Shown in pieces: positions 2,696 through 50,536 of a stretch of 50,536 nt of DNA (within the stretch, counting starts at the first letter, position 1; every line of letters begins with the position of its first letter). Both the position numbers and the translations under genes were made by a program. The stretch lies in IMG/VR virus record IMGVR_UViG_3300048562_000008, one strand, 5' to 3'. The DNA comes from a virus. The notes under the pieces are model-generated. The model did not search any database. It saw only the letters and a program-made list of their open reading frames with translations, and was not told the origin of the DNA.

Positions 2696-4660
2696 TCAGC
2701 TCCCTTCTGCGGCGTGCGCCGCGTTGATGTAGGTGACGGCATGCTTGAGTATGTCGCCGTACAGGTCGTACTGCGGAGCGAGCAGCGGGTACTTGTCGAG
2801 CGGGTTGTCGGGCACCTTCGGAGCCTCCACCCAGGAGGCCCAGGTGACGAGCTGGGTCTTGATCGCCTTCGTGTCGTGGGTCGCGAGCTTGATGCCCTCG
2901 ACCACGGCGGGGTCGGTCACGCCGGTGAGCTTCTTGAGCTTGTTCAGCTCGCGGTTGCCCACGGTGCGCTGGAACTGCGCCGCCTTGAGGGTGTAGGCGT
3001 CCCACCCCTTAACGACCTGCTTGACGTAGGCCGCGGCGTACTGCGTCACGCTCTGCGCCATCGGGAAGTCACGCTTGAACTTCTCGACGCGGTTCGCTTC
3101 GAGGCAGACCACCAGCATGTCCTCGGGGATCATGCCGAGACGCACCTCGTTGCTGTTCTGGAGCGACCAGCGGTTGCCCTGGTAGTATAGCACAGGCTTG
3201 CTGGTGTCGATTTTCTCGGCCAGGATCGGGGCGTCCCAGCGCCCGGCCACCCGGCCCTTGTACGCGCCGCGCGGCCCAGCCTTGCGCGGGTTCGCGGGAT
3301 CGCGGGGGAGCTTGATCGCGTCGATGGTCGCCCAGTCGATGACGGTCGCGCCCTCCAGCCAGAACCGCTCGGTCGCGTTGAAGCGGCCGGGCACGAACAC
3401 GTACCGGGCCGTGTTGTCCGGGATGCCTCCGTTCTTCGCCCAGTAGTAGTCGAGCTTGGCGCGCTTCGTGGCGGTGAATGTTGCGCCCTCGAAGTTCTCG
3501 AAGTAGATGTTGGCGAGGTCGATGTTGGCCGCGCTCTGCCACGATCCGGTCAGCCTGTAGGTGCTGCTTCGGTGCGGTGTGGCGACCAGGTACGTCTCGG
3601 CCGCCTGCCGGACGTGGCCCTGGGCGTCGGTCGGTTCGCGGGAGAGGTCGCCCTGCATGGGCCTGCCGCGGTACGACGCCTCGACGGTGAGGCCAATGAC
3701 GCGCGCCTGCTGCCAGATACGGATGGCCGCAACGGGCGTCTCGGCCGCTGCTATGTTCGCGAGGAGAGCGTCGTTGAGCCTGCTGTCGCGCTCGACCTTG
3801 AGCGCCTCCAGGGTGTCCTTCGTGAGCTTGGTCATCTGGAGCGCCTCACGGCTCGGGGTGAACTGCACCGCCCCGATGGGCACGAAGGCCACCGTGTGAT
3901 CCCGCCGGTAGTACGGGCGGCGATTGTTTTTGTCCGCCGACAGCGGATCGTCCGCGACGGGGTAGGGCACGTTCCCCATGACCACGGTGTCCTCGGACAC
4001 CTCGGTCGTGATGAGGATGCTGTCGGTGATCCACTGGCCGTCGATGCGCTTCGGCTCCTCGCCGTTGACCAGCACGGTGCCGGGCTGCCAGAAGCGGAAG
4101 AACTCGTGCGCCTTGCTCTCGAACTTGTGGTGGCGCTTCGCGGGGATCGTGACCTCCACGCCCGGCAGGTCGTCGGTGTCGTGCTCGGCCACGATGGTCA
4201 TGCTGCCCGCGCCGTCCTCGTCCCGGCCGATGAGCACCTGGATCATGCGTCCGTCCTTGATGCCGGTGAGCGTGAACTGGTCGGTGTAGGTCAGGGCCGA
4301 CTTGCAGCCGAGGCCCAGCATCCCCACCACGTCGTTGCTCTGGCGCTTCGTGCTCGTGCCGTAGCGGGAATAGATGTCCCGGATGCCGTCGCCGTCCAGG
4401 CCGATGCCGTAGTCCCGGATGCGCAGGAAGGGCGACAGGGGGCTGGGGAGCGTGACCTCGATGGGGCGCTTCGTCCCGGCCTCGATGTGGCTGTCCAGCG
4501 CGTTCGTGCTGTACTCCCGGATGACGGCGGCCTCGGGGTCGGAGTAGAGGTCGGTGAGCACCGACATGATGTGCGCGAGCGCGCTCGTGTCGATGGTCAT
4601 GCCGACCTTCTCGCCGCTCACGTGGCCCTGTACGTCGAGCACTCTGTCAACTACCTTCAT
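2696..4660 (-). CDS. rIIA: rIIA-like protein with an N-terminal GHKL (HATPase_c) ATPase fold
   Basis: The motifs LYSDPEAAVIREYSTNALDSH, DYGIGL, GMLGLGCKSALTYTDQFTLT and FTPSREAL align with T4 rIIA [41 protein letters not shown] and APSREAL, recalled from memory. Confidence 0.9.
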   Translation of the reverse strand: MKVVDRVLDVQGHVSGEKVGMTIDTSALAHIMSVLTDLYSDPEAAVIREYSTNALDSHIEAGTKRPIEVTLPSPLSPFLRIRDYGIGLDGDGIRDIYSRYGTSTKRQSNDVVGMLGLGCKSALTYTDQFTLTGIKDGRMIQVLIGRDEDGAGSMTIVAEHDTDDLPGVEVTIPAKRHHKFESKAHEFFRFWQPGTVLVNGEEPKRIDGQWITDSILITTEVSEDTVVMGNVPYPVADDPLSADKNNRRPYYRRDHTVAFVPIGAVQFTPSREALQMTKLTKDTLEALKVERDSRLNDALLANIAAAETPVAAIRIWQQARVIGLTVEASYRGRPMQGDLSREPTDAQGHVRQAAETYLVATPHRSSTYRLTGSWQSAANIDLANIYFENFEGATFTATKRAKLDYYWAKNGGIPDNTARYVFVPGRFNATERFWLEGATVIDWATIDAIKLPRDPANPRKAGPRGAYKGRVAGRWDAPILAEKIDTSKPVLYYQGNRWSLQNSNEVRLGMIPEDMLVVCLEANRVEKFKRDFPMAQSVTQYAAAYVKQVVKGWDAYTLKAAQFQRTVGNRELNKLKKLTGVTDPAVVEGIKLATHDTKAIKTQLVTWASWVEAPKVPDNPLDKYPLLAPQYDLYGDILKHAVTYINAAHAAEGS

Positions 4661-5510: not shown

Positions 5511-6083
5511 CTACTCCTCGATGTCGTGGATGTCCACCAGCTTGACGCGCGTGCCGTCCGGCCGTGTCATTGCCTCGCGGCCGATTGTCCAGATGATCGC
5601 TTGCAGGTCGCGCACGCTCTCGTCCAGCTCCGCAGCGGCCTCGCGGTACAGTCGTTCGGCCTCGCGCCGGTTGCCCACGCTGGTCGCGTCGCTCCCTGTC
5701 GCCAGCCGGAGCGCCCATCGGTCGAGCACGAGCGCGCCCGTGTCGCCCATGATCGCATCGTAGAACGGCCGCACCTTGTCGCCGGTCACGTGCTGCGACG
5801 GCTGCGGCGCGTGCCACGCCTTCCAGCACTGCGCGCCCATCCGTACGGGGTACCGGCCAACCTTCGCGCCAGGGGACGCTGCCCACGCGCGCGCCCATCG
5901 CAGGTTCGTGACTAGCTGCGTGTCGGGCGACGTGATGGCGAGCACTGCGGCGACTCGTGCCGTCGTGCTGCCGTACTGCCGCGCGATGGCCGCGCACTTG
6001 CGGCGGGTCGCAGGGTACCATGCTCGGCCGCGCTCGTGCTGCGCGGTCGTGCCGCTGCGGTACAGTGTGACGAGCGGATTCAT
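5511..6083 (-). CDS. hypothetical protein (190 aa)
   Basis: Track ORF with high GC3 and a 4-nt overlap with the upstream gene. I recognise no motif in it. Confidence 0.7.
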   Translation of the reverse strand: MNPLVTLYRSGTTAQHERGRAWYPATRRKCAAIARQYGSTTARVAAVLAITSPDTQLVTNLRWARAWAASPGAKVGRYPVRMGAQCWKAWHAPQPSQHVTGDKVRPFYDAIMGDTGALVLDRWALRLATGSDATSVGNRREAERLYREAAAELDESVRDLQAIIWTIGREAMTRPDGTRVKLVDIHDIEE

Positions 6084-6415
6084 CGTGCCGACTCCCGCGT
6101 GCCTGCGACGAATCCCACGTGGTCGACCGTCTCGACCGTGACGAGGACGCAGTCCTGATTCAGGTCGTCGGCAAGCTCACACGCCACGTGCTCTAGCCAC
6201 GTCGTGCAGTCTGCGGCGTACAGCGATTCATATCGCGCCGATTCGTCGCGGACGATGCGCGCGTCGTCGTCCAGCCACGCGCCCACGATGACCGTCGCGG
6301 AGAATCCGCCGAACCGTGCGAGTAGCGCGCGCTCCAGCCTTGCGTGCGCTGCCGTCGTCACGTCGTCGGGCAGTCCCGGTACGCGCGTCGGTAGGATGAT
6401 GGTATGCCGGTACAC
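6080..6415 (-). CDS. hypothetical protein (111 aa, VYRHTIILPT...)
   Basis: GTG start with a GAGAGGA RBS. The track ORF 6080..6472 is trimmed. Confidence 0.5.
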   Translation of the reverse strand: MYRHTIILPTRVPGLPDDVTTAAHARLERALLARFGGFSATVIVGAWLDDDARIVRDESARYESLYAADCTTWLEHVACELADDLNQDCVLVTVETVDHVGFVAGTRESAR

Positions 6416-6471
6416 GTCAGTCCTCTCGGTCGTGGGTAGACACAGTGTAGTCGAGTCGTGCGGGTCGCGCA

Positions 6472-6494
6472 TCCGTAGTAACTACTGATTCTCG
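6472..6494. repeat. 23-bp perfect direct repeat, copy 1 (tccgtagtaactactgattctcg), containing the palindrome GTAGT-A-ACTAC
   Basis: Identical to 6694..6716. It covers the last four codons plus stop (ENQ*) of 6482..6664 and the 10 nt downstream. Confidence 0.9.
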
Positions 6495-6664
6495 TCCAGC
6501 TCCCGCACGCCCCACGCGCTGTTCCGGTTGGCGCGGCCTTCGCGCTCATTGCGCTCCCGCGCCGCGCGCTGTATGGCCTCGCGCGGCAACCCGGTGAAGG
6601 CATGCTCGATGCGCAGCACGCGGCCGGTGGCCCTGTTCCAGAAGATCAGCTGATGCTTTCTCAT
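6482..6664 (-). CDS. hypothetical protein (60 aa)
   Basis: Track ORF with high GC3. It ends in ENQ* inside the 23-bp repeat. Confidence 0.55.
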   Translation of the reverse strand: MRKHQLIFWNRATGRVLRIEHAFTGLPREAIQRAARERNEREGRANRNSAWGVRELDENQ

Positions 6665-6693
6665 CAGTGTACTCGCTTTCGGTCGGGGTGTCG

Positions 6694-6716
6694 TCCGTAG
6701 TAACTACTGATTCTCG
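6694..6716. repeat. 23-bp perfect direct repeat, copy 2
   Basis: Identical to 6472..6494. It covers the last codons (ENQ*) of 6704..7027. Confidence 0.9.
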
Positions 6717-7027
6717 CGGACGGCTTGCGCGGCGGCTCGGATGCCCTTGCGGGACTTGACTCCGCGGGCGACCACGTCCGCGCGGTCGAGCATCGCGTCC
6801 GACAGGGTACCGCCGTTCCGCTTGCGCGCCGTGCGGAGCCGCGCGGGGTCGAGATGGAGAACCGTGACGGATGAGCGGAGCTTGCCGCGCGGAACGCTCG
6901 TGCGGGGCTTGCGGACGTAGCTCGCGAGGTGCCGAGCGCCTGCGTTCGGATTGCCGTGCCGTCGGGTGTCGTCGGGCGACGGGGGCGCGTGTGGGTGGAC
7001 AAGTTGCGGGCGGGATAGGGTAGACAT
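6704..7027 (-). CDS. hypothetical basic protein (107 aa, MSTLSRPQL...)
   Basis: ATG preceded by GGAG. It is the first gene of the leftward block. The track ORF 6704..7060 is trimmed. Confidence 0.6.
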   Translation of the reverse strand: MSTLSRPQLVHPHAPPSPDDTRRHGNPNAGARHLASYVRKPRTSVPRGKLRSSVTVLHLDPARLRTARKRNGGTLSDAMLDRADVVARGVKSRKGIRAAAQAVRENQ

Positions 7028-7955: not shown

Positions 7956-8032
7956 GCACGCGTAGCTCAGTCAGTGAGAGCGTCGGCTTGCCAAGTCGAA
8001 GGTCGCGGGAGCAAAGCCCGCCACGTGCTCCA
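7956..8032 (+). tRNA. tRNA-Gly(GCC)
   Basis: Acceptor GCACGCG/CACGTGC (1 mismatch). D arm TAGCTCAGTCAGTGAGAGC. Anticodon loop TTGCCAA. T arm GCGGG-AGCAAAG-CCCGC. CCA is encoded. Confidence 0.7.
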
Positions 8033-8085
8033 TGGCGAAACGGGGTCGGCCACCGGCCGTGTACCCGGAGTAGCCTCCCTTTCAA

Positions 8086-8161
8086 GCCGCTGTAGTGTCA
8101 GCACTCAGCACACCTGCCTTCCAAGCAGGGGGCCTCGGTGGGAATCCGAGTAGCGGCTCCA
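8086..8161 (+). tRNA. tRNA-Gly(TCC)
   Basis: Acceptor GCCGCTG/TAGCGGC. Anticodon stem CCTGC/GCAGG with loop CTTCCAA. T arm CTCGG-TGGGAAT-CCGAG. CCA is encoded. Confidence 0.65.
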
Positions 8162-8235
8162 ATTCCCCGCAGCATCCAACGACACGTCTTCACCCATACC
8201 CAGAGACGTTGCAGGCAGCGCGGGGAACCTCCTTC

Positions 8236-8308
8236 GGGGCCAGCCAGAAGGCTGGGGGCCAGGCTTGCACCCTGCGCCAGTAGGGCGCGATACCCTATGG
8301 CTCCACCA
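8236..8308 (+). tRNA. tRNA-Ala(TGC), reduced D arm
   Basis: Acceptor GGGGCCA/TGGCTCC with G3:U70. D hairpin CCAG-aagg-CTGG. Anticodon loop CTTGCAC. T arm TAGGG-CGCGATA-CCCTA. CCA is encoded. Confidence 0.55.
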
Positions 8309-8382
8309 TCTTGCCCGGACTAGGGGCATACACGACGGCGCGCTGCTAGTCCCAGCGCGCCAACTGCCATCTCGTACGACAT

Positions 8383-8468
8383 GCGGAGGCGTCGGAGTTG
8401 GAGAGCCGAGACGGGCTGTAACCCCGTTGCCACAGGCTGAGTGAGTTCGAATCTCACACCCCGCACCA
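8383..8468 (+). tRNA. tRNA-Tyr(GTA), long variable arm
   Basis: Anticodon stem ACGGG/CCCGT with loop CTGTAAC. D stem TCGG/CCGA. Variable arm of 13 nt. T arm GTGAG-TTCGAAT-CTCAC. The acceptor has 2 mismatches. CCA is encoded. Confidence 0.65.
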
Positions 8469-8469
8469 T

Positions 8470-8545
8470 GTTGACGTAGCTGAGTCAGTTCAAGCACCGG
8501 GTTGAAACCCCGGGGACGCAGGGGCGGAACCTGCCGTTGACACCA
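8470..8545 (+). tRNA. tRNA-Phe(GAA)
   Basis: Acceptor GTTGACG/CGTTGAC (2 GU pairs). Anticodon stem CCGGG/CCCGG with loop TTGAAAC. T arm GCAGG-GGCGGAA-CCTGC. CCA is encoded. Confidence 0.65.
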
Positions 8546-8616
8546 TGTTCGAGAGCCTTCGTGGTCCGAAGTACAAGGGCTGGGCCGGACGCATCGCGCC
8601 CCTCTCGGCACACCTT

Positions 8617-8689
8617 CTCGTCGTAGCTCAGTGGACAGAGCGCAGCCCTGCGAAGGCTGAGGCCGGTGGTTCGACCCCACCCGTCGAGA
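8617..8689 (+). tRNA. tRNA-Arg(GCG)
   Basis: Acceptor CTCGTCG/CGTCGAG. D arm TAGCTCAGTGGACAGAGC. Anticodon stem CAGCC/GGCTG with loop CTGCGAA. T arm GGTGG-TTCGACC-CCACC. No CCA is encoded. Confidence 0.75.
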
Positions 8690-8696
8690 CCTACAA

Positions 8697-8767
8697 GCCC
8701 ACGCCGCTAGTGCGGCCTCTCCCCTGGTACGGGAGGGAACCTGGCGCGAAACCAGGCGTTGGCTCCA
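8697..8767 (+). tRNA. tRNA-Thr(GGT), reduced D arm
   Basis: Acceptor GCCCACG/CGTTGGC (1 mismatch). D hairpin CCGC-tagt-GCGG. Anticodon stem CTCCC/GGGAG with loop CTGGTAC. T arm CCTGG-CGCGAAA-CCAGG. 68 nt before the CCA. Confidence 0.55.
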
Positions 8768-8768
8768 T

Positions 8769-8843
8769 GAGCCGCAAGTCTCAAGTGAGATCCCTGGGCT
8801 GTGAATCCGGGCGGGCTGGGCGCGATACCCAGGCGACTCTCCA
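8769..8843 (+). tRNA. tRNA-His(GTG), reduced D arm
   Basis: Acceptor GAGCCGC/GCGACTC (1 mismatch). D hairpin TCTC-aagt-GAGA. Anticodon loop CTGTGAA. T arm CTGGG-CGCGATA-CCCAG. CCA is encoded. Confidence 0.55.
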
Positions 8844-8850
8844 TCTTCAT

Positions 8851-8925
8851 CCGTCGGTACGCTAACTGGCAAACGGCCTGGCTCTTACCCAGGTATTCTA
8901 GGTTCGACCCCTAGGCGACGGACCA
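8851..8925 (+). tRNA. tRNA-Lys(CTT)
   Basis: Acceptor CCGTCGG/GCGACGG. Anticodon stem CCTGG/CCAGG with loop CTCTTAC. T arm CTAGG-TTCGACC-CCTAG. CCA is encoded. Confidence 0.75.
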
Positions 8926-9195
8926 TTTCGGCAGGACAGACCAGCGCGGCGACTCTGACTTTACGGGCGCCGAGGAAGGTCGGGACACCTGACCCCGGGG
9001 CGGACAGAACCGGGCGAAACGTGCCGCAGCCAACAGGGAGCCTCCGGGCGTCACACCTGAACGCCGGGCGGGGTGCAACCTCAAGAGGACGGCCACCGCA
9101 GGCTGGACGGGTAGAGGGCAGCGCGACGGCGCATCCGCAAGGATAGACAGATGCTGGTCCACGACAAAATCCCGCCTACAAAGCCGAAACACCCC

Positions 9196-9272
9196 GCACC
9201 GCAAGTCCACCGGTTGTGGACGATGTCCTGATAAGGCATTTGAGCTAGGTTCGACTCCTAGGCGCTGCACCA
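9196..9272 (+). tRNA. tRNA-Ile(GAT)
   Basis: Acceptor GCACCGC/GCGCTGC (1 mismatch). D stem GTCC/GGAC. Anticodon stem ATGTC/GGCAT with loop CTGATAA. T arm CTAGG-TTCGACT-CCTAG. CCA is encoded. Confidence 0.75.
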
Positions 9273-9273
9273 C

Positions 9274-9346
9274 CTCCTCGTAGCTCAGCGGACAGAGCGG
9301 CACGTTTCTACCGTGCGCGCCGGGCGTTCGACTCGTCCCGAGGAGT
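9274..9346 (+). tRNA. tRNA-Arg(TCT)
   Basis: Perfect acceptor CTCCTCG/CGAGGAG. D arm TAGCTCAGCGGACAGAGC. Anticodon stem GCACG/CGTGC with loop TTTCTAC. T arm GGGCG-TTCGACT-CGTCC. Confidence 0.8.
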
Positions 9347-9365
9347 CTACTTGACAGGTACGCAT

Positions 9366-9441
9366 GGCCCGGTCGTCTACAGGTTGTGGACACTCGGCTC
9401 TCAACCGAGAGGTCAGGGATCGTTACCCTGTCGGGCTACCA
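9366..9441 (+). tRNA. tRNA-Glu(CTC)
   Basis: Acceptor GGCCCGG/TCGGGCT (GU pairs). D stem GTCT/GGAC. Anticodon stem CTCGG/CCGAG with loop CTCTCAA. T arm CAGGG-ATCGTTA-CCCTG. CCA is encoded. Confidence 0.65.
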
Positions 9442-9537
9442 TTTTCGAGAGATGTAGGATCAGCACGAGGCGCCCCGCTATAACGGGATAAAGCGGACGC
9501 TGCCCCTGATGGCTGGTTCGTCCCGAGGCATTTTCCA

Positions 9538-9613
9538 CGCTCCATAGCTCAGCGAACAGAGCAGCGGGCTTCGAACCCGCGTGTCGGAGGTTTGACTCCT
9601 CCTGGGGCGTCCA
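9538..9613 (+). tRNA. tRNA-Arg(TCG)
   Basis: Acceptor CGCTCCA/TGGGGCG. D arm TAGCTCAGCGAACAGAGC. Anticodon stem GCGGG/CCCGC with loop CTTCGAA. T arm GGAGG-TTTGACT-CCTCC. CCA is encoded. Confidence 0.75.
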
Positions 9614-9617
9614 TCGT

Positions 9618-9691
9618 GTCGACGTGGCCGAGCGGCAAGGCACTGGGTTGCAACCCCAGCTACGCAGGTCCGAACCCTGCCGTCGATTCCA
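9618..9691 (+). tRNA. tRNA-Cys(GCA)
   Basis: Acceptor GTCGACG/CGTCGAT. Anticodon stem CTGGG/CCCAG with loop TTGCAAC. T arm GCAGG-TCCGAAC-CCTGC. CCA is encoded. Confidence 0.7.
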
Positions 9692-9796
9692 ATTCCATCC
9701 CAACCGCGCTTGACCAGCCGAGAACCCTTCGGGGGGTAGCAGAAATGGTCTCTGCATACGGGATGACAGCACCGCCCCGACTCCAACAACTTTCAT

Positions 9797-9873
9797 CCGC
9801 GAGTAGCTCAGTCCAGGAGAGCGCCTGCCTTACAAGCAGGGCGTCGGGGGAGCGAAGCCCTCCTTGCGGACCA
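9797..9873 (+). tRNA. tRNA-Val(TAC)
   Basis: Acceptor CCGCGAG/CTTGCGG. D arm TAGCTCAGTCCAGGAGAGC. Anticodon stem CCTGC/GCAGG with loop CTTACAA. T arm GGGGG-AGCGAAG-CCCTC. CCA is encoded. Confidence 0.75.
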
Positions 9874-9876
9874 TTT

Positions 9877-9961
9877 GCCCCAGTGATGGAACTGGTAGAC
9901 ATGACCGGCTCAGACCCGGTTGCCGAGAGGCGTGAGGGTTCGACTCCCTCCTCGGGGCACC
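9877..9961 (+). tRNA. tRNA-Leu(CAG), long variable arm
   Basis: Leu-type D region TGATGGAACTGGTAGACAT. Anticodon stem ACCGG/CCGGT with loop CTCAGAC. Variable arm of 13 nt. T arm GAGGG-TTCGACT-CCCTC. The acceptor GCCCCAG/CTCGGGGC has one extra nt. CCA is encoded. Confidence 0.65.
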
Positions 9962-9967
9962 ACTTCA

Positions 9968-10042
9968 AGCCGGACAGGTGTAGACAGCGACATCCCTGTT
10001 TCGTAATCAGGGGAGCGCGGTGCAAGTCCGTGGTTCGGCTCC
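9968..10042 (+). tRNA. tRNA-Thr(CGT)
   Basis: Acceptor GCCGGAC/GTTCGGC. Anticodon loop TTCGTAA on a 4-bp stem. T arm CGCGG-TGCAAGT-CCGTG. CCA is encoded. Confidence 0.6.
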
Positions 10043-10049
10043 AGCTTCA

Positions 10050-10125
10050 CCCACGTGTCGTTCAATTGGTAGGACGCGCCCCTGTTAAGGGCAGAATCTA
10101 GGTTCGAGACCTAGCGTGTGGGCCA
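10050..10125 (+). tRNA. tRNA-Asn(GTT)
   Basis: Acceptor CCACGTG/CGTGTGG (GU pairs). D arm GTTCAATTGGTAGGAC. Anticodon loop CTGTTAA. T arm CTAGG-TTCGAGA-CCTAG. CCA is encoded. Confidence 0.75.
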
Positions 10126-10131
10126 CTTCGT

Positions 10132-10206
10132 CTGAGAGTCCTCTAACCGGTAGGAGACCTGGCTCTGAACCAGGCAATCTAGGTTCGATCCCTAGCACTC
10201 AGGCCA
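10132..10206 (+). tRNA. tRNA-Gln(CTG)
   Basis: Acceptor CTGAGAG/CACTCAG (1 mismatch). Anticodon stem CCTGG/CCAGG with loop CTCTGAA. T arm CTAGG-TTCGATC-CCTAG. CCA is encoded. Confidence 0.75.
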
Positions 10207-10213
10207 TATTCAT

Positions 10214-10288
10214 CGAGACGTAGGCATCTAGTGAGGCCGCGCGGCTGTCTACCGCGTGAGGCGGGTGCGATCCCCGTCGTCTTGACCA
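10214..10288 (+). tRNA. tRNA-Asp(GTC)
   Basis: Acceptor CGAGACG/CGTCTTG. Anticodon stem CGCGG/CCGCG with loop CTGTCTA, which has an unusual T at position 37. T arm GCGGG-TGCGATC-CCCGT. CCA is encoded. Confidence 0.65.
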
Positions 10289-10294
10289 CTTCAT

Positions 10295-10372
10295 CCGAAA
10301 GAGGCGGTGGTAGATCCGCACCCGGTTCGGAGCCGGGAGACCTCGCTGGTGCAATTCCAGCCTTTCGGACCA
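10295..10372 (+). tRNA. tRNA-Pro(CGG)
   Basis: Perfect acceptor CCGAAAG/CTTTCGG. D stem GCGG/CCGC. Anticodon stem CCCGG/CCGGG with loop TTCGGAG. T arm GCTGG-TGCAATT-CCAGC. CCA is encoded. Confidence 0.7.
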
Positions 10373-10378
10373 TTTCGA

Positions 10379-10451
10379 CGCGGGTTACTTCCGGTGACGT
10401 AGACGGCCTCATAAGCCCTCCAGACGAGTTCGACTCTCGTACCCGCTACCA
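10379..10451 (+). tRNA. tRNA-Met(CAT) (elongator, initiator or Ile2 not resolved)
   Basis: Anticodon loop CTCATAA. T arm ACGAG-TTCGACT-CTCGT. The acceptor CGCGGGT/ACCCGCT has a 1:72 mismatch, which is initiator-like. Short D arm. CCA is encoded. Confidence 0.6.
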
Positions 10452-10501
10452 CCGTGCCCCGTGCGCGCGCCCGTTGGGGCGCTGGCGGCGGGGATCCCCT
10501 T

Positions 10502-10586
10502 GGAAGGTCGCATTGGCGTGCTTATGCGGTTCGAACCCGTTGATGGCCTCACGGCCGTGGGAGTTCGACTCTCCCACCTTCCTCCA
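10502..10586 (+). tRNA. tRNA-Ser(CGA), long variable arm
   Basis: Perfect acceptor GGAAGGT/ACCTTCC. Anticodon loop TTCGAAC on a weak 4-bp stem. Variable hairpin GGCC-tcac-GGCC. T arm GGGAG-TTCGACT-CTCCC. CCA is encoded. Confidence 0.6.
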
Positions 10587-10593
10587 GTTTCAT

Positions 10594-10679
10594 GGAAAGC
10601 GTCCGAATGGACGAGGACCCGCCCTGCTAAGGCGGCGCGCCGCAAGGCGTTGAGGGTTCGATGCCCTCGCTTTCCTCCA
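10594..10679 (+). tRNA. tRNA-Ser(GCT), long variable arm
   Basis: Perfect acceptor GGAAAGC/GCTTTCC. Anticodon stem CCGCC/GGCGG with loop CTGCTAA. Variable hairpin CGCC-gcaa-GGCG. T arm GAGGG-TTCGATG-CCCTC. CCA is encoded. Confidence 0.75.
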
Positions 10680-40507: not shown

Positions 40508-41056
40508 CTAGTTGTAGGCGACGTACAGCCACTCGCTCCTGAACCTGGCCCACGCCTTGTCGGACGACCACGGCTTGATCGGCTCCCGGTACGACAGCAG
40601 GGCCGGGAACTCCCCGAACTCGGGGTGCATGAGGTCGCGGGCCTCCGCGGCTAGCAGGGCGTTGTCGATGGCGTGGACGATGGGCGGGAACGGGTAGATC
40701 AGGTCGTACCGCTCGCTGATCGCGGCCTGTAGTCCGTCCTCGATGTCCCGGTAGCCGTCACCGAATCCCGCCGCGTGCTTCACCGGCCGGGCGATGTCGC
40801 TGAGGTACGCCTCGCTGGCATCGTGCAACAGCACTGTGCGCAGTAGCTGCGTGTCGTCGTACTCGCCCCCCAGCGTGTACGCCAGGTCGAGGCAGCGCAC
40901 GCTGTGCTCCGCCACGCTGTAGAAGTACTTGACGTGTCCGGTGAAGCGGCACTGGTTGCTCAGGCTGTGCGCGATGTCGTTGATGTCGAGCAGCGCCGGG
41001 TCGGGATTGATCGGGTCGAAGCGCGTCCCGCCGAACGTGATGATCGAGCTGCTCAC
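40508..41056 (-). CDS. HD-domain phosphohydrolase
   Basis: AEHSVRC...LLHDASEAYLSDI motif (H...HD...D). Confidence 0.8.
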   Translation of the reverse strand: MSSSIITFGGTRFDPINPDPALLDINDIAHSLSNQCRFTGHVKYFYSVAEHSVRCLDLAYTLGGEYDDTQLLRTVLLHDASEAYLSDIARPVKHAAGFGDGYRDIEDGLQAAISERYDLIYPFPPIVHAIDNALLAAEARDLMHPEFGEFPALLSYREPIKPWSSDKAWARFRSEWLYVAYN

Positions 41057-41520
41057 TGCCGCAGCCCGGGTGGACGGTACGACAGCGACGGCTGCGGGAA
41101 GTCCGGCACCTTGACGCTGTACTCTGGCTCCTCCAGGGACTCCAGGAACTCGTCGCCGCTATCGTAGATGCCGTTTTCCAGGTCGAACATGAGGCGGTCG
41201 AGCACGTACTCCGCGGCGTTGATATTGAAGAACACCGCAGCCGCGTGATCCTCGTCCCGCTCGCCGTTGAGCCACTGCTCGAAGTGCCGGGCCGCGGAGT
41301 CCTTGAACCGCTCCAGCTCCTCCTCGGAGTTGGCGAGCGTCCAGTTGTCCCGCCCGTACTTGACCGCGCCCTTCGTGAGGTGGATCGCCCACCGCATGAA
41401 CATCGGGCCGCTGCGGATCAGGCGCACCATGGGCTTGTCGTCCTGCACGTCACGCACCATACCGGACGCGAACTCCTGGCGCTGGCCGCTGTCCTTGACG
41501 ATGAACTGGTCAGAGTTCAT
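41053..41520 (-). CDS. putative dNTP pyrophosphohydrolase-like protein (155 aa)
   Basis: The pattern KYGRDNW...ARHFEQW...DEDHAAAVFFN resembles phage dATP/dGTP diphosphohydrolase domains, recalled from memory. The track ORF is trimmed to MNSDQF. Confidence 0.5.
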   Translation of the reverse strand: MNSDQFIVKDSGQRQEFASGMVRDVQDDKPMVRLIRSGPMFMRWAIHLTKGAVKYGRDNWTLANSEEELERFKDSAARHFEQWLNGERDEDHAAAVFFNINAAEYVLDRLMFDLENGIYDSGDEFLESLEEPEYSVKVPDFPQPSLSYRPPGLRQ

Positions 41521-41725
41521 CGCGGAAGTCCTGCTCCACGTCGGCCACCGTGAAGCGGTCGAGGCCGATAGCAAAACCGCGGTTAGTGCGCATGATCGCG
41601 TCCTCAACCGCGGTAATGGCGATTGAGAACTCTCGCGCTGCGGGACTGCGGCCGGTGTCCTCCCGGATGTTCTCCAGCGCCGTCAGGGCCTGCTTGAGGA
41701 TGCTTACTACTGTCGGTAGGGCCAT
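41510..41725 (-). CDS. hypothetical protein (71 aa)
   Basis: Track ORF with high GC3 that overlaps the next gene by 11 nt. Confidence 0.55.
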   Translation of the reverse strand: MALPTVVSILKQALTALENIREDTGRSPAAREFSIAITAVEDAIMRTNRGFAIGLDRFTVADVEQDFRDEL

Positions 41726-41733
41726 GGTGCCTC

Positions 41734-42498
41734 CTAGAATGGGATGTGGTTGCCGTACGTCTGCTTCTCGGCCATGTTATAGACGCCGACCTCGTGGTCG
41801 ACGCCGATGGGCACGACCGACTGAATCGGGTCACCCGCCTTCGCCATGAGGAAGGGCACCATCTCGTTCAGCCGCGCCAGCTCCTGCGGCGGACCCTCCC
41901 ACACGATCTCGTCGTGGACGACCGACAGCATCTTGCTCTCGATCTCCTCGGCCTCAGCCCACACCTCGCAGAGGAGGAGTGCGCGCTTCATCAGGTGAGC
42001 CGCGCTGCCCTGGATCAGTTTGTTCAACAGCTTGTGCTCGCCGTACGCCTCCGGGTGAAGGTGTCGCCCCCACGGGGTGCGCACGAAGCCCCGCGAACTT
42101 GCAGTACGCGCCACGCCATCCTGGAGTGTGCGTACGATGGGAAGGCCTCGATGGAACTTGCTGACCATCGCCTTGGCCTTGGCCTGATCGACGCCGAACT
42201 GCTCCTGAATAGTGCGCACGCCCCCGCCGTACATCAGCGAGAGGAACATGATCTTGCCCTCCTGCCGCTGCTCGGGAGTGATCTTGTCGCCGTAGACCGA
42301 CACCAGGATGGCGGTGTACGGATCGAGGCCGTCGATCATGCGCTGCGCGAGGTCCTTGTCGCCCTTGAGGGACGCGAAGTATGCGAGGATGCGCGGCTCG
42401 ATCTGCTGATAGTCGAAGAATGAGAAGACACACCCGTCCCGGGGGACGAAGGCGGTCTTCACCACCTTGTCGTCCCTCGGGATGTTCTGGAAGTTGAT
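41734..42498 (-). CDS. family-A DNA polymerase, C-terminal fragment (palm and fingers, motifs A, B and C)
   Basis: In-frame INFQNIPRDD begins directly after the TAG of the upstream ORF. Motif A FFDYQQIEPRILA. Motif B RQEGKIMFLSLMYGGG. Motif C VVHDEIVWE. The first canonical start is a GTG at 42465, downstream of NFQNIP. Confidence 0.8.
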   Translation of the reverse strand: MNFQNIPRDDKVVKTAFVPRDGCVFSFFDYQQIEPRILAYFASLKGDKDLAQRMIDGLDPYTAILVSVYGDKITPEQRQEGKIMFLSLMYGGGVRTIQEQFGVDQAKAKAMVSKFHRGLPIVRTLQDGVARTASSRGFVRTPWGRHLHPEAYGEHKLLNKLIQGSAAHLMKRALLLCEVWAEAEEIESKMLSVVHDEIVWEGPPQELARLNEMVPFLMAKAGDPIQSVVPIGVDHEVGVYNMAEKQTYGNHIPF

Positions 42499-42816
42499 CT
42501 AAACCAGCTCCTTCCACCGCCGAACCTTGAGCGAATGCTCTCCCAGGTAGGGCGCAAGGAGTTCGAGCACGAGGCCCGCCTCCTCATGGTAGGCTGCCCA
42601 CCGCCAGCGCAGTCGGCCCGACCCGGAGCCGTACGGCCCGTAGGTCTTGCCGAGAAGCACCGCGCGGTGGAAGCGGTTGATGAGTTCCGGCGCGTCGGTC
42701 TGATCGAGGGAGCAGGCGAGCCGGGGCACCTTCGTCTTGGTGCTGTGCCGGAACACGGAGCCTTCGCCCTCGAAGAACCCCGCCGCCCACGCCTCCTCCA
42801 GCTCCGTCTCGTTCAC
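42499..42816 (-). CDS. LAGLIDADG-like homing endonuclease (single motif, 105 aa)
   Basis: Motif AWAAGFFEGEGSV. The GTG start lies in a GTGA overlap with the upstream ORF. The stop abuts the polymerase C-terminal fragment. Confidence 0.55.
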   Translation of the reverse strand: MNETELEEAWAAGFFEGEGSVFRHSTKTKVPRLACSLDQTDAPELINRFHRAVLLGKTYGPYGSGSGRLRWRWAAYHEEAGLVLELLAPYLGEHSLKVRRWKELV

Positions 42817-43001
42817 TTCGCCGCGCCGACGCCCACGCGGGCACCGGCGGCGGTCAGGGCGAGCGCGACGGTACCGCGCCAGTCGTCGGGGGTGCCAACC
42901 ACCCCGGCGAGCCAGTAGTAGACGCCGAACACGAGTAGCATCGCAGCCGCGATGGCAAGCGACACCAGGATCGCGCCAAGTAGTGTGAGTTGCTTGAGCA
43001 T
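42813..43001 (-). CDS. small membrane protein (62 aa)
   Basis: Two hydrophobic segments (LTLLGAILVSLAIAAAMLLVFGVYYWLAGVV). Track ORF. Confidence 0.5.
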   Translation of the reverse strand: MLKQLTLLGAILVSLAIAAAMLLVFGVYYWLAGVVGTPDDWRGTVALALTAAGARVGVGAAK

Positions 43002-43010
43002 GAAGCCCTC

Positions 43011-43634
43011 CTAGATGTAGACGTACGTGAATGGGTCGGGCCTCAGCGCGTAGCTGAGGTCGACCGCGGACGCATTGACAATGGTGCTCCACCCGGTCGC
43101 GTAGATGCCGCGGGCCTCGTGGATGTGCCCCGTCACGGTAAGCGCGGGCTTGATCTCCCGAATACGCGTGGTGAGCGAGGGCGACCCCGCGTGGTACCCG
43201 TTCTGGCACTCGTCTCCGTAGCCCTTCGGCGGGCCGTGCGCGATGACGATGTCGGCGTACGGGTCGATGTCCACGAACGTGCGGTTGAGGTCCTCCTCGT
43301 CCCGCATGAAGGCCCACTTACCGAACCGGCCGGACAGCGGGGTGCCCCACATCGCGAGGCCACCGTACTGCGTGGAGCTGTTGTCGAGGTACGTCCACGG
43401 GAGGTCGAACCGGAACTTCTCCAGCGCGAAGTCGTGGTTCCCGGCGACGCCCACCTTGAAGTGCGCGGGCTGGCGCTCCAGCCATTCCTTGAACTCGGTG
43501 GAGAGCCAGAGGCTCTGCCGGTCGAGTCCGTGGTCGACCACGGGGCAGATGTCGCCCGCGATGATGAGCACGTCCACCACGTCGGGCAGCTCGGGCAGGA
43601 ACCCGTGCAGGTCGCTGATGATTGCAACCTTCAT
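43011..43634 (-). CDS. calcineurin-like metallophosphoesterase (207 aa)
   Basis: Motifs ISDLHG, IAGDI, AGNHDF, AHGPP and TGHIHE. Confidence 0.8.
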   Translation of the reverse strand: MKVAIISDLHGFLPELPDVVDVLIIAGDICPVVDHGLDRQSLWLSTEFKEWLERQPAHFKVGVAGNHDFALEKFRFDLPWTYLDNSSTQYGGLAMWGTPLSGRFGKWAFMRDEEDLNRTFVDIDPYADIVIAHGPPKGYGDECQNGYHAGSPSLTTRIREIKPALTVTGHIHEARGIYATGWSTIVNASAVDLSYALRPDPFTYVYI

Positions 43635-43724
43635 GGCTTACTCTCTGTGTAGGGCCACGGCCAGTCGTAGTGCTGGTCGTCCCACCACTGGTTATCCAGC
43701 CAGGCGATCCAGCGACGATATAGG

Positions 43725-44768
43725 CTACGCATTGGCGCTCCCTGATGACATCCGACCAGTCCGCGCCCCTGTTACGTTGAACCAGGGATGCACCGTGGCA
43801 TCGACCTGCTCCGCGAGGAGCGACGTGAGGTACGTGGAGTGCAGCTTGGCGTCGTGCCGGTAGTCGAGCAGCTTGACCGCCAGCTCGTCGTCCAGCGTCT
43901 CCAGGGTCTTGGCCTGCGTGTCGGCCAGCTCCAGGCCCCGGGCGGCGAACGCCTCCTTGACCTGCTTCGGGCTGTTCGGGTTGAACTCCGGGTTTCCCAG
44001 CAGCTTGACGATCCCCTGCCACTTCTCCATGACCTGCACGCCGTACTGCTCGGTCGTGCGTTCGAGGTACGGCATGTCCAGCTTGAAGCCCCGCGCCTCC
44101 ATGCGCCGCAGCGTCTCGCTGACGCGGATCTCCTCGTCGTACACGTCCGCGACCTTCGGGTCGTGATCGATCATGCGGTCAAGCACCGGCCGCAGCTTGT
44201 CGTACAGCCGCAGCGTGATCTCGGTGTCCATCATGGCGTACGGAATGATGACCTCGCGCGGGAGATGGTAGTACCCGTCGTCCTTGGTCAGGCCGTACGC
44301 CTTGCGCACCTTCTTGAGCCGCTCGTCCTCGTTCGTCTCCAGCCCTAGCTGGGTCTTGGCGAGGATCTTGAGCGCCTTGCGCTCGTTCTCGTTGATGAGG
44401 TTGAAGATCGTCTGCGTGTCCTCAATGCGGAACCCGCCGTCGGGGAGCATGCCGTCCAGCTCCAGCTTCTGTAGGTCGAACTTCGCGTTGTGGAACACGA
44501 GCACGTCGGCCGTGGACAGCAGCGTCTTGATGCGTACCCTGCGGGCCTCGGCACCGGGGTTCGCCTCGTCGGTGTCGAAGTACGCGCTGCGCACCGTGGT
44601 CGACTCGGGGTCGGGGTGCCAGCTCACGGTGACGCAGAACGGCCGGTCGTGGAAGGCGAGGCCGGAAGTCTCGGTGTCCACCGCGAGCACCTTCGGGCGG
44701 TCGTCCTCAAGCTGGCGCATGAAGTGGTCCATCCACTCGCTCCAGCGGTGCCTCTTGATTCTCGGCAT
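43725..44768 (-). CDS. family-A DNA polymerase, N-terminal fragment (3'-5' exonuclease plus the N-terminal polymerase part)
   Basis: Exo I LAVDTETSGL. Exo II FHNAKFDLQKL. The fragment ends ...NVTGARTGRMSSGSANA*, exactly where PN(L/F)QNIP should follow. Confidence 0.85.
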   Translation of the reverse strand: MPRIKRHRWSEWMDHFMRQLEDDRPKVLAVDTETSGLAFHDRPFCVTVSWHPDPESTTVRSAYFDTDEANPGAEARRVRIKTLLSTADVLVFHNAKFDLQKLELDGMLPDGGFRIEDTQTIFNLINENERKALKILAKTQLGLETNEDERLKKVRKAYGLTKDDGYYHLPREVIIPYAMMDTEITLRLYDKLRPVLDRMIDHDPKVADVYDEEIRVSETLRRMEARGFKLDMPYLERTTEQYGVQVMEKWQGIVKLLGNPEFNPNSPKQVKEAFAARGLELADTQAKTLETLDDELAVKLLDYRHDAKLHSTYLTSLLAEQVDATVHPWFNVTGARTGRMSSGSANA

Positions 44769-45175
44769 GTCTCACCTCCTAGTTGAAAGATTAGGGAAGC
44801 ACCACCCTCCCGCACAAGGCGCAGGCCGATGGCCTTATCTGGCGGTGCTTCCGTGCCCGGGTGAGCCGGGACTTGGTCGGCGTTACCACGCAGCGAGGGT
44901 ACCGCCCTGCCACGCCCTAATCCGTTGGCCCGGCCCGCGTTGCGGGTACCCGTGATCTACTGCGCTTGAGGCATCGCTTCCGTATCCGACGAGGGACACC
45001 CCTCACCTACCGATCCCGCCGCGCGGGCAACCGTAGTCGGTACCACGGATGGCTCCGTCGAGCCAGTTCTAGCCTGCGCCCGCTACGGTCGGTCGAGGTT
45101 CGGGACGATTGTCTCGGGCTTGAAGATCACCCGGTACCGCGTGGTTGACACGGCGATGGGGTCGATCTGCTCGAC

Positions 45176-45757
45176 TCATACGCCCTCCTCTAGGATGTCA
45201 TCAAGAACGCTCTCGGTGTCGAGGTCGCCCGGGTTCACCCCGAACAGCTCCGCGATCTGCGTGAGGGTCGGGGTCTTGTTGTCGAGCGCCGCCACGGCGA
45301 GCGCCTTGACGGCCTTCTTCTTGGCGGGCAGCCCGCCTGCGGCCGTCTTGGCCTTCTTGTTGACGGCCTCGCGCTTCTCGGCGTCCCACAGGTACAGGCC
45401 CACGCCCGCCTGGTGCCACGCCTTCTTGATGGCCTCGGCCAGCGCGGTCTTGACCGCCATGTCCGGGTCCTTGTTGGTCATCGCGCCCACGCCGTACAGC
45501 GTCTTGGTGACGCCGTCGATCTGCGCCTCGATGAACAGCTCGCACTCCGCGAAGAACGGACCGCCCTGGGACTGCGGCGGGGTGATCTTCGACCGCGACG
45601 GGGGCATGACGCTCCAGTCCGGGCCGAGGACGGCGTTCACGCGGTTGATGGTCGCGCTGATGTCGATGTACGTGAGCTGCGTCCCGCCCTGCGAGCGGTT
45701 CTTGTGCTCGCCGGGGGCGAACTCAGCCTGGAGCTGGTCGAGCTGGGTGTCGGTCAT
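45176..45757 (-). CDS. Rad52-like single-strand annealing protein
   Basis: The pattern TYIDISATINRVNAVLGPDW...LYGVG...AEAIKKAWHQAGVGLYLW is typical of Rad52/Sak-type annealases, recalled from memory. It neighbours the exonuclease. Confidence 0.6.
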   Translation of the reverse strand: MTDTQLDQLQAEFAPGEHKNRSQGGTQLTYIDISATINRVNAVLGPDWSVMPPSRSKITPPQSQGGPFFAECELFIEAQIDGVTKTLYGVGAMTNKDPDMAVKTALAEAIKKAWHQAGVGLYLWDAEKREAVNKKAKTAAGGLPAKKKAVKALAVAALDNKTPTLTQIAELFGVNPGDLDTESVLDDILEEGV

Positions 45758-50266: not shown

Positions 50267-50484
50267 CCAGCGACCATGGTGATCGTCTCCAAGCGCTGAG
50301 CAGCCAAGTTGAGGTCCCGGCATTCAATTGGGCCGAGCCCACTCTCACGCATTGTCTTGACAAGCTCCGCGCGAGCCGAGTGCGCCTCGGTGAGAATACG
50401 AGCTATATCTGCCGTCATTTGTGCAGGCGAAGCCGGAGCGAGTTCGCTCCGGAGCACTTCGGTGGAGGAGAACTGGCGCTTCAC
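50209..50484 (-). CDS. hypothetical protein (91 aa), MKRQFSST N-terminus and LHWRLERTEARRKKRTS C-terminus
   Basis: Track ORF. Both termini lie in copies of the junction repeat. Confidence 0.6.
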   Translation of the reverse strand: MKRQFSSTEVLRSELAPASPAQMTADIARILTEAHSARAELVKTMRESGLGPIECRDLNLAAQRLETITMVAGSLHWRLERTEARRKKRTS

Positions 50485-50536
50485 GACGTGCGCTTCTTCC
50501 GGCGGGCCTCAGTCCGCTCCAGCCGCCAGTGCAGCG

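Follow-up and report, generated by a model that had tools for sequence, protein, structure and literature searches.

A family-A DNA polymerase encoded by two genes cut at TGRxSS/NxQNIP in an uncultured phage clade, with a LAGLIDADG cassette and a probable AUC start at the second gene

How could a phage make a working DNA polymerase from two separate open reading frames (ORFs) that are held apart by other genes, when the second of them lacks a canonical start codon where it ought to begin? This question is raised by IMG/VR virus record IMGVR_UViG_3300048562_000008, a Joint Genome Institute (JGI) metagenome contig of 50,536 nucleotides (nt) that was analysed at full length and is called the window below. 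An earlier note on this DNA had described a family-A polymerase gene broken at its TGRxSS/NFQNIP motif by a three-gene insert ending in a LAGLIDADG-like ORF, and had offered RNA splicing, a two-subunit polymerase and translational coupling with an ATC start as explanations. We rechecked its coordinates (Table 1; all polymerase-locus genes lie on the minus strand) and compared the locus with related DNA taken from IMG/VR, metagenomes and assemblies, in which lineages are designated by L numbers. The comparison makes it probable, in our judgement, that an ancestral two-gene polymerase, polN plus polC, received a recent LAGLIDADG insertion that captured the GTG start of polC, and that polC would now be started at AUC.

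The two ORFs divide a family-A polymerase between them without remainder. polN matches PF01612 (DNA_pol_A_exo1; E = 5.7e-15) and profile positions 3-127 of PF00476 (DNA_pol_A), aligns with Taq residues 428-580, and ends in ...TGRMSSGSANA-TAG. polC matches PF00476 positions 127-376 (E = 4.9e-42), aligns with Taq residues 580-807, and its frame opens ATC-AAC-TTC-CAG-AAC-ATC-CCG (I-N-F-Q-N-I-P-R-D-D) directly after the TAG at 42499-42501 that closes the LAGLIDADG ORF. Jointly they cover PF01612 and PF00476 positions 3-376 with nothing overlapping or lost, and because polN stops and polC starts at PF00476 position 127, the cut falls at a single profile position; aligned to solved structures, it lies at N580 of Taq, the counterpart of N675 in E. 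coli Pol I. Coordinates and Pfam profiles thus agree with the place of the split, the exonuclease and C-terminus of polN and the I-N-F-Q-N-I-P frame after the TAG as they had been described. The 3'-5' exonuclease and a polymerase domain with TGR, NxQNIP and motifs A-C mark the pair as family A, whereas the single polypeptide of that family is replaced by two ORFs here and in all close relatives. Residues N2, Q4, N5 and P7 of polC are invariant across 23 polC proteins, and they correspond to Asn and Gln residues with which Pol I contacts DNA (Klenow N675, Q677 and N678). The start of polN is marked by MPR[IVL]K, conserved among relatives, and by an AGGAGG 7 nt upstream. Both genes are shortened in the JGI gene calls: polN is called 12 codons late, losing 44733-44768, and polC is called as a 243-aa (amino acid) product from the GTG at 42465, which drops 42466-42498 including NFQNIP.

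The junction at which the LAGLIDADG stop meets polC is not a sequencing or assembly artefact, because a second sample yielded an independent contig of 2,016 nt that matches the window exactly through TAG-ATC. The same locus sequence was found in two samples and ten contigs, and the TAG-ATC junction recurs in three further lineages (L127, L129 and L130). The proviso that the split might reflect misassembly or a frameshift can therefore be dropped.

The split is ancestral and older than the insert, which is not its cause. Each of the 120 best polC homologues (identity down to 44%) is a stand-alone protein, 240-341 aa long; 29 of them were read, and these start with M/V-N[FWL]QNIPRDDK, carry a short N-terminal extension or come from a shortened gene call, and some stand-alone relatives open with L, giving M/V/L-N[FWL]QNIP. 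When 1.84 billion cluster representatives (50% identity) were searched exhaustively with HMMER, ranks 1-42 were likewise stand-alone (119-341 aa), and the first full-length PolA came at rank 43. About 40 dereplicated lineages have the identical cut, with separate genes in a common order; in every locus showing both halves, polN ends 5-8 residues past TGRxSS and polC opens exactly one codon ahead of NxQNIP. The distance from one half to the other varies widely (-4, 136, 175, 207, 403, 556, 645 and so on up to 2,198 nt). The view that the insert splits the gene fails on these relatives: L088-L090 have no insert, their halves meeting in an ATGA overlap (-4 nt) in different frames, so that the polymerase of L088 is still two genes cut at the same residue, L084 has a metallophosphoesterase gene only, and others have different genes between the halves. 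Contiguous polymerases are found among distant relatives (35% identity or less), where the motif reads TGRMSCSD-P-NIQNWP; aligning these uninterrupted enzymes, as had been proposed for defining the insertion point, puts a CCN proline codon at the cut position. All split lineages form one clade, with the contiguous ones apart, in a quick neighbour-joining tree. The contiguous outgroups with their proline codon and the single split clade therefore indicate one ancient fission. Across comparisons, the ratio of non-synonymous to synonymous substitution rates (dN/dS) of polC is 0.21-0.24; it is 0.23 against L091, as between relatives with canonical starts. Such ratios indicate purifying selection. 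In a sub-group comprising L112 and the proteins P0020 and P0116, (H/R)ELPNIP replaces NFQNIP behind an N-terminal extension of 6-20 residues (P0116, P0020), so the position of the polC N-terminus is not absolutely fixed.

The ORF immediately in front of polC has a LAGLIDADG homing-endonuclease fold, judged from an AlphaFold2 model (predicted local distance difference test, pLDDT, 79; predicted TM-score, pTM, 0.74) with the order alpha-beta-beta-alpha-beta-beta-alpha. All 50 matches listed by Foldseek in the PDB are LAGLIDADG enzymes, with I-CvuI, I-CreI and I-MsoI at the top, and 49 of these 50 have a probability of 0.92-1.0 and a TM-score of 0.43-0.54. At the profile level, the ORF matches PHROG phrog_5046 (E = 2.7e-8), though that family is labelled 'HNH endonuclease', and reaches 13.9 bits against Pfam LAGLIDADG_3, for which the cut-off is 22.5. 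Its single motif is kept unchanged by 8 homologues, the catalytic acidic residue included. The protein is thus a putative endonuclease, and its target would presumably be the adjoining, highly conserved DNA that encodes NFQNIP, which is the type of target that homing endonucleases use.

Comparison with relatives shows this gene to be a recent, mobile and precise in-frame insertion. In L091, the closest relative, polC is 91% identical and the LAGLIDADG gene is absent; the insertion site lies after the first two polC codons, originally GTG-AAC. L091 reads ..GGAAAGTGAAC|TTCCAG.., that is, GGAAA-GTGAAC-TTCCAGAAC, while the window reads ..GCGAAGTGAAC|GAGACG...GTTTAGATCAAC|TTCCAG.., or in full GCGAA-GTGAAC-GAGACG...LAGLIDADG ORF...GGAAGGAGCTGGTTTAG-ATCAAC-TTCCAGAAC; the element-free junction of the L091 type is GGAAAGTGAACTTCCAGAACATCCCG. 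As AAC occurs twice, the boundary can be placed only to within 3 nt. In L091 the GTGA provides both the TGA stop of a small membrane ORF and the GTG at which polC begins; in the window the LAGLIDADG gene uses this former polC GTG and its GTGA coupling to the upstream gene, and polC is left with ATC. The gene is also absent from L083 and L084. Four other lineages have homologues of 62-88% identity, each placed immediately 5' of polC, and their polC is only 44-61% identical to that of the window; between lineages with polC at this level of identity the cassette is 62-84% identical, and in L127 and L130 it is 84% identical in both, with polC at 44% and 60%, respectively. LAGLIDADG-like genes less closely related to it are found at this position in L097, L100, L004 and L135, and LAGLIDADG-bearing lineages are scattered over the neighbour-joining tree. 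A gene present or absent among close relatives and conserved beyond its host gene behaves as a mobile element, and the pattern is as expected for a homing-endonuclease gene. Only the close sub-lineage is tied to polC: the idea that the wider LAGLIDADG-like family is polymerase-specific was abandoned, since only 4 of 80 IMG/VR loci (31-41% identity) lie beside PolA.

Comparison of the loci further suggests that polC is most likely translated from AUC. The window and L007, L008, L012, L013, L132 and L133 have no canonical in-frame start between the upstream stop and NFQNIP; the first one in the window is, as previously reported, the GTG at 42465, past NFQNIP. A Shine-Dalgarno-like GGAAGGAG stands upstream of the ATC and is conserved as GGAAGGAG or GGAAGGGG in L127, L129 and L130 (CCTTCCTC is a designed replacement for it). 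The 3' end of the cassette reads TGGAAGG(A/G)GCTGGT(C/T)TAG-ATC-AACTTCCAG in the window and these three lineages, four lineages with polC genes only 44-60% identical. We tallied the codon before NxQNIP in 39 split lineages dereplicated at 95% identity. It is canonical in many (GTG in 12, TTG in 7, ATG in 6) and near-cognate in others (ATC in 7, ATA in 2, CTG in 2, ATT in 1, ACG in 1); the one remaining locus, L135, has an apparent 1-nt indel, and no further sense codon was seen at this position among the 39. The near-cognate share of lineages is roughly one fifth to one third. In L135 (3880-3910), ATGAAC is followed by one T too many, which leaves the ATG in a different frame from TFQNIPRDD, while the TGA that ends a LAGLIDADG-like ORF precedes polC in its own frame; this may be an assembly indel or mark a site of frameshifting.

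The setting of these codons is that of coupled translation. Near-cognate codons abut or overlap the upstream stop (TAG-ATC, CTGA, ATAA, ATTAA) or come after AGGAGG, and at 27 of 42 tabulated loci the upstream ORF ends in the TGA of NTG-A, whose A belongs to the invariant Asn codon; at TAG-ATC in the window the stop-to-start distance is 0 nt. Because no promoter-like site was found inside the insert, the two halves are probably co-transcribed. TAG is an ordinary stop here, ending 5 of 11 neighbouring genes, including polN, the metallophosphoesterase gene and polC. Among the 18 phage tRNAs none is a suppressor and none is initiator-like. Amber suppression or recoding was ruled out on the lack of a suppressor and on this use of TAG; the phage tRNA-Ile(GAU) was rejected as an AUC-reading initiator, having a paired G1:C72 and lacking the three G:C pairs that initiator tRNAs have in their anticodon stems. 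Among the explanations offered earlier, both the fractured two-subunit polymerase and translational coupling with an ATC start are supported by this comparative evidence.

The genes that fill the space between the halves are tightly packed and differ between lineages, and this space is a cargo site. All junctions in the insert of the window are overlaps of 4-8 nt or gaps of at most 9 nt. Its length of 1,226 nt and its three clear ORFs stand as earlier described, but the approximately 90 nt then counted as non-coding are spanned by a possible 33-aa ORF, which has an 8-nt overlap with the polN stop and an ATGA overlap with the metallophosphoesterase start, gave no Pfam or PHROG match, and is absent from L084, where the metallophosphoesterase gene overlaps polN directly. 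Whether or not this ORF is real, essentially no free RNA remains in the insert. The metallophosphoesterase has homologues between the halves in L084, L091 and L096, and because they share it, it is taken as an older cargo of this sub-clade. The small hydrophobic protein has no family match in Pfam or PHROG, and the TGA of its ORF overlaps the GTG of the next gene (GTGA). Some lineages carry no cargo and L084 the metallophosphoesterase alone; it is joined by small membrane proteins in the window, L091 and probably L083 (a short contig with only the 3' end of the upstream ORF). Elsewhere the site holds a PyrB-like aspartate carbamoyltransferase (ATCase; L008/L124), a SLOG-domain protein (L012), a GNAT acetyltransferase (L127) or DUF7574 (L005). 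Because different lineages carry different genes there, the 'three-gene insert' represents an accumulation of cargo rather than one element. At least 10 lineages encode, in the space from polN to polC, a very basic conserved protein of 144-243 aa with the motif ..KGPAQPQSRRNRRKARQERR..; it has no Pfam, PHROG or cultured-phage match, and could be an accessory factor of the split polymerase. In the marine lineage L008 the ATCase (6073-7005) matches Pfam OTCace_N with E = 8.6e-44, and the ATT of polC overlaps its TAA.

Taken together, the history and operation of the locus may be pictured as follows. A single fission, basal to a large clade of uncultured phages and falling at N580 of Taq (N675 of E. 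coli Pol I), would have separated polN (exonuclease, thumb and TGRxSS) from polC (NFQNIP and motifs A-C), and the two products would reassemble non-covalently into an active enzyme. The gap between the cistrons has become a landing pad for cargo, which in this sub-clade consists of the metallophosphoesterase and a small membrane protein. Recently a single-motif, free-standing LAGLIDADG gene entered in frame after polC codons 1-2, taking over the GTG and its GTGA coupling, while the 3' end of the cassette would supply a restart module of its own, consisting of Shine-Dalgarno, TAG and ATC. Ribosomes ending at the UAG would be held by the Shine-Dalgarno sequence and re-initiate at the AUC with initiator tRNA, and/or initiation there would be directly guided by the Shine-Dalgarno sequence. 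A broader reading, which we put forward only tentatively and would not yet back over its negation, is that the whole clade has a heterodimeric polymerase cut in the active-site region; that the 5' end of polC is a hotspot of adequate near-cognate initiation (AUC, AUA, AUU, CUG, ACG), with the ribosome handed over from the upstream stop; and that the cassette is a mobile element able, through its portable Shine-Dalgarno-stop-AUC module, to take up the opening codons of an essential gene with no need of an intron or intein. As to why AUC rather than AUG, we can only conjecture that it might protect the occupied allele from self-cleavage or tune subunit dosage.

Several points weigh against this picture. 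The two proteins, their association and initiation at AUC are deduced wholly from comparing uncultured genomes, and the single split clade comes only from a quick neighbour-joining tree with midpoint rooting. Six of the 39 tallied loci had been picked for looking odd, so that the unbiased near-cognate fraction is about 6 of 32. Near-cognate starts in E. coli yield about 1% or less of the output of AUG. Re-initiation in E. coli still uses IF3, which disfavours non-canonical codons (PMC2268962). Because near-cognate starts are weak and re-initiation is IF3-sensitive, it is hard to see how the two subunits would reach equal amounts. Since polC and the LAGLIDADG ORF share a frame, a low-level UAG read-through fusion is possible; being short and below threshold in Pfam, the LAGLIDADG ORF might also be an inactive or domesticated remnant.

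Other explanations of the locus fare less well. If the 1.2-kb insert were an intron of group I or group II with a LAGLIDADG ORF inside it, splicing would yield a single polymerase of about 600 aa, and there is a case for it: LAGLIDADG genes typically occur in group I introns, introns of this kind are known from phage polymerase genes, as in Pf-WMP3 (PMC3428280), and the insert boundaries can be read as U|...G|. However, a scan of 41000-45500 on both strands with Rfam 15 at E <= 10 found no intron family and only three chance snoRNA-like matches, and the insert is coding from wall to wall, with overlapping stops and starts between which a ribozyme core would not fit. In relatives these two gene ends are found with unrelated cargo or with no intervening DNA, as in L088-L090, where they form two overlapping ORFs in different frames and not one continuous frame, and only 318 nt of the insert, 3' of the remaining cargo, are recent. 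The splicing hypothesis is thus very improbable. Still harder to credit is a joining of the halves by ribosomal bypassing or a split intein. Bypassing has a precedent in T4 gene 60, where a 50-nt gap is skipped; here the gap is 1,226 nt with four translated ORFs, matching take-off and landing codons are lacking, and frameshifting was likewise discarded, there being no slippery site at the relatives with ATGA overlaps. Fractured genes with split inteins around a free-standing endonuclease gene do exist (PMC2677866), but because polN ends 5-8 residues after TGRxSS (five in the window) and polC opens at NFQNIP, with no HN motif followed by a Cys, Ser or Thr nucleophile, intein halves would not fit.

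Three further readings accept two genes and differ over the second. Initiation at GTG 42465, a normal start codon and the one chosen in the JGI call of a 243-aa product, would give a protein without NFQNIP that is either crippled or tolerant of the loss. We consider this unlikely: no Shine-Dalgarno sequence precedes that GTG (the upstream sequence reads ..CCGAGGGACGACAAG GTG), the codon at this position is CTG in L127, ACG in L129, ACA in L013, ATC in L012 and ACG in L007, the upstream codons 2-11 are kept as NFQNIPRDDK in near-cognate lineages with synonymous changes only, and the product would lose all four residues that are invariant in the 23 polC proteins. Read-through of the UAG, by which the C-terminal subunit would be a LAGLIDADG-PolC fusion of about 360 aa, alone or beside free endonuclease, has a similarly small chance of being right. 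It is favoured by the shared frame with only a TAG between the ORFs (window, L127, L129 and L130), by an in-frame TAG 0-4 codons upstream of polC in L132, L133, L105, L098 and L008, and by the 3-residue N-terminal extension tolerated in L128. On the other hand, the shared frame follows automatically from one in-frame insertion, the homologous ORF is out of frame with polC in L128, L100 and L097, a correctly spaced Shine-Dalgarno sequence before the ATC is conserved, and the ordinary use of TAG and the lack of a suppressor among the phage tRNAs count here as well. It is a little less likely again that polC or the whole polymerase is a pseudogene decaying after the destruction of its start, with host enzymes replicating the phage. 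Gene decay classically begins with the loss of a canonical start, and a near-cognate codon is by definition one mutation from a start; yet the polC ORF is intact with a dN/dS of 0.23, the TAG-ATC junction is undisrupted across lineages as divergent as those above, the presence of one sequence in two samples and ten contigs tells against decay, and the non-canonical codons are only ATH, CTG and ACG, other single-step neighbours of GTG, TTG and ATG being unseen. The preferred reading therefore remains a two-gene polymerase with a later LAGLIDADG insertion and a probable AUC start.

Table 1. Positions of the features discussed, in the window unless a lineage is named
Feature	Position	Strand	Remarks
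polN, N-terminal polymerase subunit	43725..44768	-	347 aa; 3'-5' exonuclease, thumb, first palm part
polC, C-terminal polymerase subunit	41734..42498	-	254 codons; (I/fMet)-NFQNIP and motifs A, B, C
LAGLIDADG homing-endonuclease-like gene	42499..42816	-	single motif, AAGFFEGEG; 105 aa
In-frame insertion	42493..42810	-	318 nt (106 codons); relative to L091, closest LAGLIDADG-free relative
TAG-ATC junction	42496..42501	-	LAGLIDADG stop abutting the inferred polC AUC start; identical in second sample, L127, L129, L130
Shine-Dalgarno-like GGAAGGAG	42508..42515	-	9 nt upstream of ATC, inside 3' end of LAGLIDADG ORF
GTG of JGI gene call	42463..42465	-	first in-frame ATG/GTG/TTG, 11 codons past ATC; probably not the real start
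Possible 33-aa ORF	43631..43732	-	from ORF list; status uncertain
Metallophosphoesterase (cargo)	43011..43634	-	207 aa; Pfam Metallophos E = 5.6e-14; PHROG phrog_1649
62-aa hydrophobic ORF, probably membrane	42813..43001	-	from ORF list; homologues of 61 and 63 aa (L091, L083)
18-tRNA cluster	7956-10679	+	includes tRNA-Ile(GAU) 9196-9272; no tRNA-Met, no suppressor
Basic cargo protein in related lineages	L005:5668-6330, L007:5035-5604, L009:6223-6774, L097:4078-4644
Basic cargo protein in related lineages, continued	L100:1192-1626, L106:488-1018, L110:182-760, L133:3181-3735

The window carries a 127-nt direct repeat (nt 1-127 identical to 50410-50536), and because such a terminal repeat is the overlap of a circular assembly, it is read as a complete circular genome of 50,409 bp. 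The G+C content is 66%. A megablast search against 50,697 phage records gave no match that would point to a close cultured relative; by tblastn the best cultured-phage match of polC is about 32% identical, and the capsid protein has cultured relatives only among Arthrobacter, Microbacterium and Cellulosimicrobium phages, at about 30% identity (best about 31%). These capsid relatives and the G+C content suggest that the host is probably an actinobacterium. A scan of GTDB for the host returned only two contigs from metagenome-assembled genomes (Acidimicrobiaceae, Terriglobales) and a distant Shewanella match. A 654-aa ORF at 2696-4660 (-) matches the PHROG rIIA lysis inhibitor family (E = 1.7e-95), which is unusual company for a high-G+C phage with a capsid only distantly related to those of actinophages. 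Directly downstream of polC, a 71-aa ORF at 41510-41725 (-) has faint precomputed Pfam matches to Acb2_Tad1_hairpin, an anti-defence, sponge-like family, and the match is clearer in its 68-aa homologue in L083. Upstream of polN, a gene-free gap of about 400 nt (44769-45175) separates it from a rad52-like gene and contains a terminator-like hairpin at 44811-44794 (-); in L085 and L088 the rad52-like gene and polN abut without this gap.

The significance of the locus lies in several fields. Family A is a well-studied group, and a clade cut between two DNA-contacting motifs would show that the palm can form from two chains, providing a natural design for split Pol I enzymes. The recurrence of AUC, AUA, AUU, CUG and ACG at one codon of an essential gene offers a comparative system for near-cognate re-initiation in high-G+C bacteria. 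The cassette would represent a third way, beside introns and inteins, for an endonuclease gene to occupy an essential gene harmlessly. Automatic gene callers shorten split-polymerase genes, as where the JGI call loses NFQNIP, and virus surveys based on polymerases are distorted as a result. Nothing here is categorically new; the split within the active site, the recurrence of near-cognate codons and the mechanism of insertion are of specialist interest. What emerges is a clade of family-A polymerases that are probably natural heterodimers, with a mobile endonuclease cassette and a probable AUC restart.

A search of open-access literature turned up no description of the TGRxSS/NxQNIP cut, the cargo site, a LAGLIDADG cassette that captures a start or recurrent near-cognate starts; related systems are known. 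Family-A polymerases in two genes are known from the T7-like cyanophages S-SBP1 and S-TIP37, with PolA split into exonuclease and polymerase parts (PMC10201439, PMC12695635), a split that a family-wide survey presented as the first seen in PolAs (PMC10201439), and from LUZ24-like Pseudomonas phages, which have several small genes between 'DNA polymerase part I' and 'part II' (PMC3890496). In both groups the cut passes between the exonuclease and polymerase domains, whereas here it lies inside the polymerase domain, at TGRxSS/NxQNIP in the active-site region. Phage YuA was wrongly considered another split PolA; its gp21 is one 664-aa gene. Closer in position are the OM43 phages MEP401 and MEP402, in which the polymerase domain is also cut in two, a small ORF separating the pieces, and for which an intron was likewise considered by the authors (PMC10580990). 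In the MEP401 sequence, gp13 ends ...TGRLSSSSPNLQNFDGEIKTLFLSRYGE* and gp15 starts MILNADAKALEW, so that the cut is not the same one: it lies downstream by about 20 residues, past NLQN and immediately ahead of motif A. These phages differ further in belonging to an unrelated lineage (34% G+C, Zobellviridae) and in having a normal ATG start.

The LAGLIDADG protein resembles the homodimeric enzymes I-CreI, I-CvuI and I-MsoI in its single motif with both acidic residues (GFFEGEG), its core fold, its sporadic mobile distribution and the very conserved target-like sequence that adjoins it; it differs in its length (105 aa against about 150-165 aa), in being free-standing outside an intron or intein, and in being only a putative endonuclease. 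The polC start recalls termination-reinitiation pairs, whose stops and starts overlap or abut and whose products are often subunits of one complex (PMC10666635, PMC2268962). The AUU of E. coli infC (cited in PMC2268962) is likewise a near-cognate codon used as a real, regulated start; unlike it, the near-cognate starts described here recur at one codon of one essential phage gene in many lineages, and one of them was brought in by a mobile cassette. mobE in nrdA of Aeromonas phage Aeh1 (cited in PMC2988022) is also a free-standing endonuclease gene inside an essential, conserved coding region, and there too the downstream fragment requires a new translation start. In Aeh1 the insertion of mobE made the split and left two functional pieces, while here the split came first and the endonuclease gene later, at the 5' end of polC.

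The closest analogue in logic is the split gp43 (43A/43B) of Aeromonas phages 25 and 44RR, in which a seg endonuclease gene or an untranslated spacer lies between the halves (PMC2988022). That enzyme belongs to family B and is found in a few proteobacterial myoviruses, compared with a family-A clade of more than 40 clusters (50% identity) here, and neither multi-gene cargo nor a near-cognate start has been reported for it. Like the locus described here, split gp43 is a replicative polymerase in two cistrons; the gp43 products co-purify and are active, and the free-standing homing-endonuclease gene in its split is suggested in the review to have invaded a gene that was already split (PMC2988022).

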